Source: an uncultured Verrucomicrobiae bacterium
GTDB taxonomy: Bacteria; Verrucomicrobiota; Verrucomicrobiia; Opitutales; JABDGR01
Assembly (NCBI GenBank): GCA_963765205.1
Contig: CAVXVB010000008.1
Location: forward strand, 352,001-416,000
Direction of reading: 5' to 3'
Length of the DNA: 64,000 nt
The notes below the pieces were generated by a model. It saw nothing but the letters and a program-made list of their open reading frames with translations, was not told where the DNA came from and did no database searches. A program made the translations under genes and the position numbers. Shown here in pieces: positions 34,911 to 46,671 of this stretch (the first letter of the stretch is position 1; the number at the start of each line of letters is the position of its first letter).

Positions 34911-34984
34911 GCGGGCGTAGTATAGAGGTAATACGTGAGCTTCCCAAGCTTGAATCGAGGGTTCGATTCCCTCCGCCCGCACCA
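34911..34984 (+). tRNA. tRNA-Gly (anticodon CCC)
   Basis: GCGGGCG acceptor pairing with CGCCCGC-ACCA, anticodon loop TTCCCAA, T arm GAGGGTTCGATTCCCTC. Confidence 0.95.
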
Positions 34985-35160
34985 GTTATGCAACTTGATA
35001 TTTAACAATGGGTTACTTAACATTGCGTGACGTGAGATTTGAATTCTTCCAATAAAACTTCCAATAAATCGTGGAGGCATATCGGTGTTGCGCAAGTGGC
35101 CAGATGTATTTCTATGGATAGCAAAAGTGCTGCCATGGCAAAAATACGCGACGTAACAAA

Positions 35161-36099: not shown

Positions 36100-36405
36100 A
36101 TGATCCAAACTTTGGCTCCAACACCTGCGGCGACGCACTCGCCCGGCACTCACGCGACCTGGCCTATCTGGCTGCGTCTTCCTAAACCCGGTGCCCGTTG
36201 CCCCTACACCGGGCTATCGCGCGGCACCCTGGTTGAACTCGTCTTGCCATGCCCGGTAAACGACAACCGCCCCCCGGTGCGGAGTGTCTGCCTCAAAAAG
36301 AAAAATGCCATTCGTGGCATCCGGCTAATTGATGCCGCCAGCCTTGCCCAGCATTTGGCGCACCTGGCTGACGAACAAACCCCCGCTCAAGGAGCCAGAC
36401 TATGA
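36100..36405 (+). CDS. Excisionase/AlpA-like small DNA-binding protein
   Basis: WLRLPKPGARCPYTGLSRGTLVEL...VRSV.LKK...RGIRLIDAASL winged-HTH pattern; ATGA overlap with rep. Confidence 0.7.
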   Translation: MIQTLAPTPAATHSPGTHATWPIWLRLPKPGARCPYTGLSRGTLVELVLPCPVNDNRPPVRSVCLKKKNAIRGIRLIDAASLAQHLAHLADEQTPAQGARL

Positions 36406-37553
36406 GCACAACCCCAAAGAAAAGAGGCGGTAAACGCCGCTCTGCTGACTGGCCTGCCTGTAAGCCCGTCCTGCCCTCCATAGCTGCGCCCGACACCGGC
36501 TCGCTGTCAAGGTGGAGCACAGCTCGCGAGCAATACCTTGACAGCCTCCCAGCCGGTAAAATTGACCAGCGCCCAGGGCAGGACCGCATTTCGGGGAAAA
36601 AATTGACCGTCACCAAGCCGCATTTTGCGCCTGCTAAGGCGCGAAGGGCGGCACGACTTCAATCCGACTCACCGAAACCGCGAGCAAAAACCAAACCGCT
36701 CAAGGCAGGGCCGCCGCAAAGGCCACAGGCCGTCGTCGGTGGCCGGGCCGGTCGTTCACGAGAAACACCCCCTGTTATGGGGCTGCTTTGCGAATATATA
36801 CCGATCTCGTGGCATCACGAAAAGGGCATTATCAAGGTCGTCCGGCGCCTCCTGCCTCGGTTACCTGACGTGTCGGGGATGCTGTTCCTGACATTCAGCC
36901 TGGATAGAAACCTTTTCAGCGGCCCAGCCTCCGCGTTTGAGTTAGCCCGGCAGAGAATCCGCAAGCTCTTTGCCCGCCTCCGCAAAGGCATAATGTGGAT
37001 GGGCAAAACATACAAGATCGCTGCCCCCTACTGTGTAAAAGTCGAATTTCATGGTGATGATGAAGGATGGGTTCACTTTCACGTCATCCTCTTAACCCGC
37101 CGCTTCATCCCAGGCGACCTGCTCAATTACCTTTGGGACCTTGGTCGGGTAAATGTCGCTCGCATCAGCAATGACGATTTCCATTACCTGCTAAAATATT
37201 CCTGTAAGGGCGTAGGGTATCCCCCATGGGCCTTATCCCGCCGCCGATTGCGCATCTTCCAGCCCTCCCATGGCTTCCTTTTGGCTGTCGAGAAGCCGGA
37301 AGCCAAGGAAGGCCCTAAAACGAAGCGCGAGCGCGTCTCCTACACCATCGGCCAGCGCCTGGAACGCTGGTCCCGAATGGCGCTATTCAATTGCCACGGT
37401 AGCTACCAGGCAATCCGGCTCCTGCGCCCATTCAAACAACTTTTTGATGAGTTAGTTTTCTCCATTGCCGAGGAAGGGAGATACCTGGGCCTCGGGCTTA
37501 TCAAAATTAACCACATAACTGATCTAAGTCTATGGCAACTGATACCAAACTGA
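36402..37553 (+). CDS. HUH-endonuclease rolling-circle replication initiator (Rep)
   Basis: Motif I FLTFS; KVEFH; motif II WVHFHVIL; motif III YLLKY with two tyrosines. Confidence 0.85.
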   Translation: MSTTPKKRGGKRRSADWPACKPVLPSIAAPDTGSLSRWSTAREQYLDSLPAGKIDQRPGQDRISGKKLTVTKPHFAPAKARRAARLQSDSPKPRAKTKPLKAGPPQRPQAVVGGRAGRSRETPPVMGLLCEYIPISWHHEKGIIKVVRRLLPRLPDVSGMLFLTFSLDRNLFSGPASAFELARQRIRKLFARLRKGIMWMGKTYKIAAPYCVKVEFHGDDEGWVHFHVILLTRRFIPGDLLNYLWDLGRVNVARISNDDFHYLLKYSCKGVGYPPWALSRRRLRIFQPSHGFLLAVEKPEAKEGPKTKRERVSYTIGQRLERWSRMALFNCHGSYQAIRLLRPFKQLFDELVFSIAEEGRYLGLGLIKINHITDLSLWQLIPN

Positions 37554-37858
37554 ACCTAAAATCCGGGGTGTATGTGCGCGGAACCGTCTTGTCCAGCACC
37601 GCCACCCTGTTCGACCGCAAGGACAAATCCGGCCAATTCGTGCGCATTCGGCACGAAATCGCCACCAAACCCGGAGTCATTGACTTCGAGCAGATACTGG
37701 ACACGGCCAAAGACGCCGGCGTCAAGGTGGAGGGCGGCAAAGTCGTCACCTTCCCCACCTACCCGGAAGACTCGCCGATCACGCTCAAGCTCGAACCTGG
37801 GGCGATTAAGGAGTTCAAGGGCAAGGTCAAGATCACTCGGGCGGAACTCCTTGCCTGA
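37532..37858 (+). CDS. Putative ssDNA-binding protein (inovirus g5p-like OB fold)
   Basis: 108 aa, beta-rich (VRGTVLSS...FDRKDKSG.FVRIRHEI), overlapping the rep 3' end; position matches inovirus gII-gV order. Confidence 0.6.
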   Translation: MATDTKLNLKSGVYVRGTVLSSTATLFDRKDKSGQFVRIRHEIATKPGVIDFEQILDTAKDAGVKVEGGKVVTFPTYPEDSPITLKLEPGAIKEFKGKVKITRAELLA

Positions 37859-40459: not shown

Positions 40460-41048
40460 ATGGATATGACGCACAACCCGCTAATTCTGCCCATTGTCAC
40501 CATGGCTGTGCTCGGAGTGCTAGTCTTAGTCCTCAAGGTTCTCAAGGCTAGGGTATCGAAAGAGCCAGAAAATGGCACCTACTACCTCAAGCAATCTCTG
40601 TTTACCCCTGCAGAGCGGTCATTCCTTGGCGTGCTGGAGTCCTTGGGGATGCCAGAATACCGAATTATGGCTAAAGTGCGCCTGGCTGACATCTTTGGAG
40701 TCAAAAAGGGGCAAGGCTGGCGGTCGGCCTTCAACCGGATAAGCGCCAAGCATGTGGACTTCCTGCTGGTCAGGCAAAGCGACGGCGCACCGATTCTTGG
40801 CATCGAGCTCGACGATAGCTCCCATGATCGGCCGGATCCGCAAAGAGCGGGATAGGTTCGTTGACGTTGTTTTTGCCTCCGCTGGCCTGCCCCTGCTCCA
40901 TGTGCCAGCCCGCCAATCCTACGAAACAAGGGCCATTCAGGCACAGATCAATGACGCCATCAATAACCGGGCCAATGCGGGCGCAGTGGGGGCGGGTGGG
41001 GGATTGAGCGGGCCCAAAGCAGTCCCCGGTCAAGCGGCTGCCGGGTGA
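40460..41048 (+). CDS. DUF2726 family protein, frameshift near 40836
   Basis: N-terminal TM; LFTPAERSF..VL, KVRLADI, RISAKHVDFLL, IELDDSSH; continues RKERDRFVD.VFASAGLPLLH in the shifted frame. Confidence 0.85.
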
Positions 41049-41193
41049 GCTTGCACCGGGGTCTGCGACGGCTCGCAATTTTTGGTTCTTTTTCCCAAAA
41101 GGAAGGGAGGAAGCAGTCCGGGGTGCGAACGGGCGGGAGGTGTAGCGCAAGCGGAACGCACGCCAGGTAGTCGCCCCGGTCTGCGGGGTGGGT
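41008..41193. repeat. Multi-hairpin repeat A, copy 1
   Basis: Direct repeat of 42209-42393 with about 20 differences over ~186 nt by manual alignment. Confidence 0.92.
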
Positions 41194-41357
41194 GCTTGTT
41201 TCGTTTTGACAACCTTGTGTGCCTTTGTCTTGCCTGTGCTTGGCGGCGGGGGTAACCAAGCCTGCGACAGTCTTATTCCAGCAGGAGAGTTCGGCACAGC
41301 ACAAATGCTCCCTTGGGGGCCACACGATGGAGAGCGTCTTGACAAATAAACTTTTCC

Positions 41358-41404
41358 TTAACCCTCTCTCCCCAACCCCGGCAACCCCAAAAAAGCAAAT
41401 TCCA
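41358..41404. repeat. Repeat B, copy 1
   Basis: ttaaccctctctccccaaccccggcaaccccaaaaaagcaaattcca; near-copy at 41905-41950. Confidence 0.85.
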
Positions 41405-41665
41405 TTCAGTGAAAAGTTTGTGGGTTGAACCCAAAAAGTCAACGCCGACCGCCCCACCGAGGGAACAAGAGGCAACCTCAACCTGAACCCTTGCTTGCCC
41501 CCCGCGCAGCATGGCGAGCATCACGGCCAGCAGCCGGTGGTGCAGCTTCGTCGGCAGTGTGCGCGCGAGGCGGCGCAGTTGGCGGCTAACGGCCACTTCG
41601 TCAACACCACCAGCCCACCCGACTTCGGTGCCCTTTAACCGCTAGGCCCAAAGGGGGCAAGCCGA

Positions 41666-41854
41666 TTAAGCCCCTCCTGTCAGCAGTAACATCCACGATC
41701 CATCATCTTGACATTGTAAATGTTTTTCGGGGTTGGTGTCAACTATGATAATTGAGCCTGTTGAATATTGCTGGCCATTATACCAGCAAATTCCGGGCGT
41801 AGGTGCAGGCGGCTGTGTAGGTGCAGGTGGGGGTGTTGTATTGCTCTCTTTCAT
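41666..41854 (-). CDS. Small Cys-containing protein (DUF1496-like)
   Basis: CWYNGQQYSTGS...LQCQDDGSW after a Pro/Thr-rich N-terminus. Confidence 0.6.
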   Translation of the reverse strand: MKESNTTPPPAPTQPPAPTPGICWYNGQQYSTGSIIIVDTNPEKHLQCQDDGSWMLLLTGGA

Positions 41855-41904
41855 GTTGTGAATGGGAGTTGATGTTAAAAGAGGACGAGGCATTTCTGGG
41901 CGAT

Positions 41905-41950
41905 TTAACCCCCTCCTCCCAACCCTGGCAACCCCAAAAAAGCAATTTCA
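41905..41950. repeat. Repeat B, copy 2
   Basis: ttaaccccctcctcccaaccctggcaaccccaaaaaagcaatttca. Confidence 0.85.
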
Positions 41951-42190
41951 GTTACCCTATTTGAACCGCTTTTGGGTCGAATTGTGGGTTACGGGACGGT
42001 CGCCGTCTCTGGAACCGGGGGCACGGTCTTCCAGCTTCGGTTTCTGCCCAATGCACCCCACATTCACAGCTTACTCCAAGAGTCGATTAATCAAGCCAAA
42101 ACTGGCCGGCGGTCGCCCTACCCGGCATCGCCCCTGGAACACGCAACAGGGCCAGCCTACGACGAAACCCGCTATATGCCGAAAGGGTAG
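41951..42190 (+). pseudogene. 5'-truncated bacterial PH-domain (bPH_2-like) gene fragment
   Basis: VTLFEPLLGRIVGYGTVAVSGTGG resembles the 'LGRILGYGTV.V.GTGG' bPH_2 motif; the N-terminal half is missing and the fragment abuts repeat B2. Confidence 0.6.
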
Positions 42191-42208
42191 TGCCTTGCTG
42201 TGCGCTTG

Positions 42209-42393
42209 GCGGGCCCAAAGCAGTCCCCGGACAGCGGATGCCAGGGGAGCTTGCGCCAGGGTCTGCGACGGCTCGCAACCTTTGGTTCTTTTTTCCAAAA
42301 AGAAGGGAGGCAGCAGCCCGGGGAGCGCACGGGCGGGAGGTGTAGCGCACGCGGAACACACGCACGGTAGCCGCCCCGGTCTGCGGGGTGGGT
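42209..42393. repeat. Multi-hairpin repeat A, copy 2
   Basis: Direct repeat of 41008-41193. Confidence 0.92.
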
Positions 42394-45089: not shown

Positions 45090-45342
45090 CCGGATCATCG
45101 GAAATGTGTAACCCGAATGTGTAACCCGGTGGTCAAAAATGGGCCTATTTTAGCGGACTGATGCGGAGTCGAGTCGAAGGTACAACTTTTGCAAGTTGCT
45201 CTAGGTCATACTCAAGCGGACTCCTGCGGGATCGCGCCGAATATAGCAAATAGTATCATTTCTCATTAGAAAACCATTGCTCTATCTACTCGACAAACCT
45301 GCTGCGAACGGTACTGGTTTTTGCATAATGGACTCTTAGGGC

Positions 45343-46486
45343 TTATCGGGTAACGTCAGGAAGTTTGTTCACGGCCGCACGTTTGTGCTCATCGGAAATA
45401 TGCGTGTAATGGCGGCTCACTGCAGCGCTGTCATGGCCGATAATGTCCATTGCCACAGCTTCAGAAACACCCGCGTTTTTGAGCAAGCTTGTGGCAGTAT
45501 GACGCAAGGCATGAAAAGACAGCGCAGACATTTCGTGTCGTGCGGAACCGTCCTTCCTTGTGGGCTTGATGATCTCGGCTGTCGGCTAATCCAGCCGCTG
45601 CCAACAAATCTGAAAACTCGCGGGAAAGCTGCGAGACTTTGCCTTGTGTAGTGGCGCAATCGTGCGCATGGGCAAAAACAGCCGCGGTGGGGTCGTCACC
45701 TGCATGCTTTTCCAGCCAGCGCAATAACGGAGCGGCGATGGGCACCCCCATGCGTCGCCCGGTCTTTTGGGTGGTAAAAACCACTTCCTGCTCCACAAGG
45801 TCAATTTGCTGCCACGTCATCCGTGCCAGATCGCCAAGACGCTGCCCGGTATAAAGCCCAGCCAGCACAAGGCCATGCCATTCTTCATTTGCCACGTTCA
45901 AGACGCGCTTTAGCTCTTTCATGGTGAAGGGACGGCGGGTGTTGACCTCACGGCGTTTAATCGTCGGCACAAGCGCGGCGGGATTTGTCAGGCAAGCACC
46001 TTCACGCAAAGCGTCTTGCAAGGCGCAGCGGAGGATTTTTAGCGCGGTGTTCGCTGTGGCCGGGGCGCGTCCCTTGGCCCGCGCGTCACGCCACGCCGCC
46101 ACAATCGAGGGAGTCAATTCGTCGAGGAACATCTTTTGCGCCCGGTCGCCAAGGTGAGCGGTGAAGCCCTCTGCTACCTTGCGGTAGGCGTGGGCGGTGC
46201 TGGGGCTGGTCTCCACGGCCTTACGGCTGGCCCAGCGCGCCAGATAGGCAGCAATCGGCTCGCCGGCCACGTTCTCGCCCGTGAGCTCGCGCACAACTTC
46301 GGAAATGACGCGTCGGGCCTGATTGGCGGACATCCGGCCCCGGTAGGCTGCTTCCCACGTCTCTGCGAGCTTTTGGGCCCCAGGACGGCTGGTTTGGCGG
46401 GTGCTGCGTTGGCGCTGTTTTCCGGTTGCATCCGTAAAGCAGGCAATCCAATATCGGCAGTTAGGTTTGCGAGTTAGAGAAGCCAT
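45343..46486 (-). CDS. Tyrosine recombinase/integrase, frameshift near 45547
   Basis: YTGQRLGD (R), QKTG (K), then in the shifted frame SFHALRH, IIGH, HYTH (H-x-x-R, H, Y). Confidence 0.92.
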
Positions 46487-46584
46487 AATCTTCCAATGAT
46501 TCTTCCAATGACGTGGAGCTTTGTCAACATCATAGAGTTGTTTTCCCGCTCTAAGATAGAGACTTACGACACGCCCGGAACCAT

Positions 46585-46614
46585 TCGAGGGTTCGATTCC
46601 CTCCGCCCGCACCA
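46585..46614 (+). repeat. attR: duplicated 3' 30 bp of tRNA-Gly
   Basis: Identical to 34955-34984. Confidence 0.95.
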
Positions 46615-46671
46615 CTTTCCCCCCAGTCCGCCACCGACTGACAAACTTTTTACGGTCTCTCGTCCACGCGC

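Follow-up and report, generated by a model that had tools for sequence, protein, structure and literature searches.

A covarying, strand-oriented DNA motif in mobile elements of soil Opitutales, a putative single-strand origin

Results

An integrative island with two copies of a structured motif

The window analysed here is a 64-kb stretch of the genome of an uncultured Opitutales bacterium (G000), in which an 11.6-kb island lies at a tRNA-Gly(CCC) gene and is bounded by a 33-nt repeat of the 3′ end of this tRNA (Table 1). The island encodes a rolling-circle Rep, a tyrosine integrase, DUF2726 and DUF1496 proteins, a weakly methyltransferase-like protein and a Tle1-like protein. Its 108-aa gene is best treated as a lead only for an inovirus-type ssDNA-binding protein. 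The integrase frame (45461-46615) opens within the right attachment repeat. One public-run contig (X1), with a depth equal to the total, is without one base at 40837 and likewise at 45546, so that the split of the DUF2726 gene and the 3′ end of the integrase gene may each reflect an assembly error. The DUF1496 gene is flanked by a 45-nt C-rich repeat (41358-41402 and 41905-41949), one of a dispersed family for which the genome gives dozens of matches.

Table 1. Features of the window, with the loci of two further conserved elements of the IMEs (own locus handles)
Feature	Position	Strand	Remarks
tRNA-Gly(CCC), integration target	34911..34984	+	
Left attachment repeat, 33 nt	34955..34987	+	
Rolling-circle Rep, PF23343 REP_ORF2-G2P	36402..37553	+	E 2e-7, over cut-off; same strand as both motif copies
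108-aa gene	37532..37858	+	Nearest named look-alikes are inovirus-type ssDNA-binding proteins (scores 0.83-0.89)
DUF2726 gene, split over two frames in the assembly	40460..41048	+	Second frame (C-terminal part) stops within copy 1
Motif copy 1	41008..41193	+	
Copy 1, rod 1: 7-bp base stem, 4x3 internal loop, GCAG/CTGC stem, T·T mismatch (41023/41062), upper stem	41008..41076	+	Predicted from covariation
Copy 1, T-run, T/A hairpin (stem 41086-41104, 3-nt loop), purine linker	41077..41112	+	
Copy 1, rod 2: GCAG/CTGC stem, T·T mismatch (41117/41180), purine-rich internal loops, apex 41140-41157 with TAGCG	41113..41184	+	
Copy 1, G-rich 3′ tail	41185..41193	+	
DUF1496 gene, between the motif copies	41666..41893	-	Sigma-70-like site at 41742-41713
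72-aa ORF	41972..42190	+	No family match
Motif copy 2	42209..42393	+	Rod 1 42209-42276, T/A stem 42286-42304, rod 2 42313-42384
Tyrosine integrase (PF00589, PF13102), not integron type	45461..46615	-	
Right attachment repeat	46585..46617	+	97% identical
Single-copy inverted repeat	G000:C9:1459975-1460288 (L190); L055:5005-5150; L063:7315-7465; L093; L094; L095; L189:1880-2015		
GGTAATCG block	L055:4501-4582; L063:6806-6889; L093:12316-12393; L094; L095; G000:C9:1460370-1460419		

The longest among the direct-repeat families listed for the window is a pair of elements within this island, hereafter the motif. As noted in a preliminary description of this DNA, the motif occurs in two direct copies, which are 89% identical (20 differences, including one 1-nt gap) and both contain TAGCG. 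Copy 2 is covered without difference by a public-run contig (41481-42828). Each copy had been described as directly following the 3′ end of a cargo gene. This is not so for copy 1, because the frame with the C-terminal part of DUF2726 enters the element by 41 nt before stopping at 41048. Copy 2 does start 18 nt past the 72-aa ORF, but the PH label given to this ORF finds no match in Pfam or PHROGs.

The differences between the copies had been read as preserving a structure, which is true in part. Thirteen of the 20 fall in unpaired positions, for a baseline of 45% of the element unpaired, one pair is kept and one gained, and the T/A hairpin shows the change described earlier (T·G to T-A at 41101), but five pairs are broken. 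Copy 2 has four family pairs broken and a C·T in place of the second T·T. Whereas copy 1 folds better than shuffled sequences (z -3.5 with RNA and -2.3 with DNA parameters), copy 2 folds no better than its shuffles (z -0.16 and -0.88, respectively). By themselves, the window copies are thus little evidence for selection on a fold.

A motif family of Opitutales

Searches with blastn and two covariance models locate seven motif copies in the source genome. In all, 43 distinct full-length members of 146-276 nt, from genomes of Opitutales and from metagenome contigs, were delimited by script, a few of the end points being approximate. Motif copies are present in 3/9 genomes of the same family as the source, and one covariance model (R1) is positive in 11/151 genomes of a second family of the order (f22) and in 0/151 genomes of a phylum-wide sample that includes no known carrier. 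A pattern scan of metagenome contigs gave 25 loci; the same pattern matches 3/401 genomes of the phylum, all from this order, and its control matches none. The covariance-model searches covered Verrucomicrobiota, and a wider scan of genome contigs, run once with a narrow rod-2 pattern, gave 16 matches, two of which are real (both Opitutales) and 14 of which were judged on inspection to be chance. Among plasmids and phages, blastn returned one 32-nt chance match and nothing else, and viral contigs gave no match with two patterns and two protein queries. Rfam 15 has no match at the motif in the window or in three other loci (L033, L055 and L063). We found no description of the motif in the mainly open-access literature searched, although one could exist in the supplements of comparative structured-RNA screens. 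The motif family is real, strongly structured and apparently undescribed, and is a feature of mobile elements of soil Opitutales.

Members end in a 3′ tail, GGG[CT]GG, in 34/43 cases, and three short copies in the source genome are without the T-run, T/A hairpin and linker part. One short copy without the T/A hairpin (G000:C9:895551-895770) is followed by a GTGTAACC repeat and lies after a urea transport operon; the same repeat also occurs at 45102-45140, close to the end of the window island that carries the integrase, and the C9 locus is probably an island remnant. In a tree of the motif core, from which four short copies were left out and in which bootstrap values are not fully settled, the window copies fall within a supported group of nine, together with other copies from G000 and from G008, regardless of the carrier element. 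The two window copies are not sisters, and copies within the same element are sisters in L055, L056, L097 and L098. The motif is not part of a conserved coding frame, which had been named as a way to refute the structural reading: lengths modulo 3 are spread over 12, 14 and 17 of the 43 members, and no reading frame is conserved.

Covariation supports a two-rod fold

Alignments of the family support a predicted fold in which two long rods, both interrupted and both containing a T·T mismatch, flank a T/A hairpin that is not present in every member. All covariation counts given here are inflated by the relatedness of the members. For rod 1 and the T/A hairpin, an alignment of 28 sequences, in which part of the columns are fixed by the search pattern, has 92.8% of cells paired and two-sided change in 13/26 pairs, which none of 500 shuffles equals, and slid controls have paired cells near 50%. 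Members found with the models (L092, L098, L100-L102) add compensatory changes in the T/A stem, and a model-fitted alignment of 53 rows, which leans toward the model and includes seven weak rows, some of them chance, has two-sided change in 24/26 pairs of the same region. The upper stem of rod 1 has a variable top. Rod 2 repeats the GCAG-T...T-CTGC foot, carries purine-rich internal loops and varies in length across the family.

The preliminary description had proposed about six hairpins. In 19 hand-picked sequences of the short type, the three short 3′ hairpins of that proposal are 75% paired with two-sided change in 4/17 pairs, and 237/500 shuffles score as high. In contrast, a single long rod (rod 2) over the same bases is 88% paired with two-sided change in 14/20 pairs, and 0/500 shuffles score as high. 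Selection on a single-stranded fold is therefore strongly supported, by the covariation of the family and not by the two window copies from which it had been proposed.

G·T pairs outnumber A·C pairs on the motif strand (18:7 and 6:2). The strands also differ in folding energy (39/43 and 42/43 members), which we dropped as evidence because shuffled sequences are equally asymmetric; G-richness accounts for the lower energy on the motif strand, and compared with their own shuffles both strands are nearly equal (z -4.7 and -4.9).

Signatures of known single-strand signals in the family

The hexamer AAGCGG is a PriA primosome assembly site, and GCGAAGC forms a DNA-type mini-hairpin. Among the 43 members, the former is present in 12 (8.5 in shuffles, maximum 15) and the latter in 7, which is not a significant enrichment (3.5 in shuffles, maximum 9). 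Promoter elements are not in excess in the stems of these members (TTGAC 5 versus 5.4 in shuffles, TAnnnT 8 versus 9.6), and tetraloops of the RNA type are not enriched (CUUCGG 1 versus 5.1, GNRA-type 6 versus 7.0). The end boxes of attC sites are RYYYAAC and GTTRRRY. They are present in 1/43 and 0/43 members, and the best match to the integron integrase model TIGR02249 in the source genome, which is 92% complete, scores 74 bits for a cut-off of 265; the earlier suggestion of an attC-like site is not borne out.

The TAGCG of the window copies had been likened to the CS-6 box of ssoA origins, which is defined as TAGCG(A/T) in a terminal loop (PMC10378824). Both copies read TAGCGC instead, and in the family TAGCG occurs in 13/43 members and the full box in 4/43. 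A further trait of ssoA, a long imperfect stem-loop of ~160 nt on one strand, is found in the motif (146-276 nt, covarying rods). Of the sequence hallmarks examined in the 43 members (CS-6, AAGCGG and -35/-10 elements), none is a feature of the family.

Host elements and strand regularities

An element-core gene (relaxase, VirD4-like, primase, recombinase, Rep or other) is found in 24 of the 47 mapped motif regions, many of the remainder being contigs under 2.5 kb. Because members are related and six locus pairs are duplicates, the counts of context and strand that follow are not independent. The commonest host element encodes a PF13814 relaxase, a family classed as MobC (PMC5357655), with a VirD4-like coupling protein, a CHC2-Toprim primase, a serine recombinase and an uncharacterised protein that we refer to as MDFLT. 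Other carriers are islands with a G2P-type Rep (the window and C7:239380), islands that adjoin tRNAs or tyrosine integrases (L091, L101-L103) and a defence-type island with an SRAP gene (C5). G008 and G006 have orphan copies, without a mobile gene in the vicinity. A single genome can thus have the motif in unrelated element types, and its position relative to genes is flexible.

Several side observations concern these elements. MDFLT (L063:8239-8931 and relatives) is a 230-aa protein with 47 relatives and no Pfam family found; its start faces a motif copy on the other strand across a short gap in 6/8 elements. SRAP and DUF72 genes recur beside motif copies (G000:C5:87369-106600, L062 and L034), and the C5 island has, by eye, a KAP-NTPase/TatD-like cluster and SNF2/methyltransferase-like genes. 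The ends of motif-bearing IMEs adjoin a comM/YifB Mg-chelatase-like gene in L065 (583-2160) and L032, which is likely to be the target of the serine recombinase.

The orientation of the motif is regular. Two-copy loci are co-oriented in 8/8 cases. The motif strand is opposite to the PF13814 relaxase gene in 9/10 elements (the relaxase being on the motif strand in the remaining one), to the MDFLT gene in 8/8 and to the primase gene in 7/9 (on the motif strand in 2/9), and the motif and Rep share a strand in 2/2. In most mapped elements, core mobility genes lie on the other strand with their starts facing the motif, and a position after a cargo gene, which had been expected, is not general. In the 70 nt on the 5′ side of the motif, an extended -10 is found on the other strand in 10/46 cases and on the motif strand in 1/46 (1.7 in shuffles). 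Since this -10 sits on the opposite strand, the adjacent promoter points away from the motif and serves the neighbouring operon.

Two alternatives bear on this arrangement. The motif could be a structured non-coding RNA of mobile elements, such as a countertranscript or sponge, divergent from primase, relaxase or MDFLT operons. Covariation is blind to the difference between RNA and DNA, G·T pairs are tolerated, the T-run after rod 1 is terminator-like, and the motif lies antisense and just upstream of the starts of IME operons. However, the Rfam, tetraloop and promoter checks gave no positive sign for such an RNA, the nearby promoter being directed away, and one window copy overlaps a gene end. 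We keep this candidate of the preliminary description as a rival, although an unlikely one. Alternatively, the fold could act in cis in the early expression of genes on its 5′ side, for example as a single-stranded promoter like Frpo, with priming secondary or absent. The core genes on the 5′ side are indeed mostly templated by the motif strand (MDFLT and relaxase counts above), which is the geometry described for Frpo, where adjacent genes are templated by the folding strand (PMC11541004). The rods, however, show no excess of -35/-10 elements, the -10 that is observed lies outside the fold, and the copies in the window and C7 have same-strand genes on their 5′ side, all of which make this reading improbable.

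Paired copies bracket cargo in four of the seven mapped elements (the window, C9 of G000, L097 and L098) and core genes in the other three. The first of these counts, the sister copies within elements and the orphan copies would suit a role at the borders of cargo blocks, as a site of recombination or cargo exchange or as a non-autonomous hairpin element. The bracketing of core genes, the attC and integron-integrase results above, the lack of a sister relationship between the window copies and the lack of any contig that joins across the segment between them argue against such a role, and we consider it quite improbable. A search for a deletion between the copies had been proposed as a check; the contigs of one public study contain neither such a deletion nor an excision joint, and the one listed joint, from 42276 to 41134, carries the letters of the paralogue at C9:895551.

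The motif is not a fixed part of this Rep family, since 40 regions around other G2P-Rep homologues of the order (out of 48 matches in 32/301 genomes; several of the scanned regions end at contig ends) contain no motif, and the one weak match lies in a gene. It looks native to MobC IMEs and acquired by the Rep islands of G000. In another class, one IME (G463), which is the whole of the contrast in host range, has the complete IME layout, and the motif is absent from its 40 kb.

A separate candidate for the origin of transfer

MobC oriTs are described as usually lying upstream of the coupling-protein gene (bioRxiv 2024.01.30.577996), and one reading of the motif is that it is this oriT, or else a mimic of it by which islands without a relaxase, like that of the window, could hitchhike. 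One copy is intergenic and upstream of the coupling-protein or relaxase gene in 7/10 relaxase elements, just upstream of the former in four IMEs and of the latter in three, which does not extend to second copies or to the window, and multi-copy oriT mimics with several inverted repeats are on record (PMC4993578). Against this reading, the motif has no nick-like word at a constant position, the same motif is found alongside distant relaxases, and a different, single-copy inverted repeat tracks the relaxase. We therefore regard it as quite improbable.

This other inverted repeat, of ~140 nt with an invariant AAGTCGGGCGC, lies upstream of the VirD4-like coupling-protein gene in 7/7 MobC IMEs of the clade, from two classes, and three of these seven have no motif beside it (C9 of G000, L093 and G463). 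Its GTCGGG, on the motif strand, is partly like the nick of the ICEKp1 MobC, GGTTG|GTCGCG (PMC7755788). It is a better oriT candidate than the motif, and may define a new family of MobC oriTs. We had considered that the rod in G463 could be a diverged substitute for the motif, and rejected this idea because the rod is a distinct element, present in single copy, that occurs together with the motif. A second conserved block, with a GGTAATCG core, lies just before the coupling-protein gene, and an AACCCG word is repeated near this block and 5′ of many motif copies (20/43). The block and these words are possibly relaxosome or regulator sites.

Discussion

Among the candidates put forward earlier, a single-strand origin survives best, though not as an ssoA. 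We slightly favour the view that the motif is a strand-specific structured ssDNA signal, a putative host-restricted single-strand origin (sso or ssi). An island or IME would be released as one strand, either by a rolling-circle Rep or, during mobilisation, by the MobC relaxase. The released strand would fold into the two mismatch-interrupted rods around the T/A hairpin, and a priming enzyme, which could be the host RNA polymerase or a DnaG-type primase of the host or element, would recognise this fold and start the complementary strand. From there, DNA synthesis would proceed to the 5′ side of the motif. In many IMEs this side holds the promoters of the primase, coupling-protein and relaxase genes, so that these promoters and genes would be the first to become double-stranded. 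Second copies would be redundant starts; partial redundancy has been reported for ICEBs1 (PMC4595007).

Beyond the fold, the family, its mobile-element context and its strand regularities, which are observed, we infer the identity of the released strand, the DNA nature of the molecule and the priming itself. In rolling-circle replicons, the coding strand of Rep is the displaced strand. The MobL relaxase of pLS20 is described as nicking the template strand of its conjugation genes (PMC5313138), which offers an analogy from a relaxase other than MobC. Taken together, this rule and this analogy suggest that the motif strand is the released one. Orientation specificity, a flexible position and host restriction are described for known sso (PMC5703833, PMC4595007), and the orientation, flexible position and host range of the motif fit an sso in these respects. 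The absence of the motif near other Reps lowers the standing of this reading but is compatible with it, since sso classes are modular.

The motif most resembles the sso of rolling-circle plasmids and ICEs (ssoA, ssoU, ssoT, ssoW, ssoL and sso1 of ICEBs1), which are described as imperfect stem-loops of ~160-280 nt in elements with a Rep or relaxase, with one orientation, flexible position and a narrow host range (PMC5703833, PMC4595007, PMC5313138). It differs from them in that the CS-6 consensus is not a family feature, in its fold, which is GC-rich and combines two rods that contain T·T mismatches with a T/A hairpin, in its often being present in two copies, and in its hosts, which are Verrucomicrobiota whereas those of known sso are Bacillota; sso activity of the motif is accordingly putative. 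The Frpo/ssi repeats of the F leading region likewise form long rod-like ssDNA folds in several co-oriented copies, with adjacent genes templated by the folding strand (PMC11541004). Unlike Frpo, however, the motif has no sigma-70 -35/-10 elements in its stems, and its neighbours are replication/mobilisation genes or defence cargo rather than anti-defence genes. Staphylococcal oriT mimics of the pWBG749 family are ~126-bp modules of multiple inverted repeats, present in one to three copies per replicon on relaxase-less elements (PMC4993578), whereas in the Opitutales elements it is another inverted repeat, present in single copy, that tracks the relaxase, and what the motif conserves is structure more than a core sequence. 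Because the CS-6, -35/-10 and attC tests fail, we do not file the motif as an ssoA, an Frpo or an attC site, and propose that it works like an sso or ssi.

The host elements have likenesses of their own, which do not concern the motif. The gene set of the motif-bearing MobC IMEs matches that of class 8 of the streptococcal IMEs (PF13814/MobC relaxase, VirD4, serine integrase; Coluzzi et al. 2017, PMC5357655), and streptococcal IMEs with an RCR-initiator-like relaxase and a tyrosine integrase (PMC5357655) have the gene set of the second carrier type. In addition to these sets, the IMEs of Opitutales encode a CHC2-Toprim primase, a second large ATPase of VirD4-like type and MDFLT.

More tentatively, and with some doubt on our part, the motif could be a portable module for second-strand priming that is specific to Opitutales, with a new fold and neither sigma-70 mimicry nor a known sso box. 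The T·T feet of its rods would be read by a DnaG-type primase, of the host or the CHC2-Toprim primase of MobC IMEs, and the module would be swapped as a unit between unrelated integrative elements and set their host range.

How single strands are primed after transfer or displacement is understood for a few elements of Bacillota and enterobacteria, and the literature that we searched offered no such priming signal for Verrucomicrobiota. A covarying family of 43 members, two covariance models and a candidate oriT make lagging-strand priming and host range testable in this phylum, and the motif could supply vector parts for Verrucomicrobiota, a group with few genetic tools.
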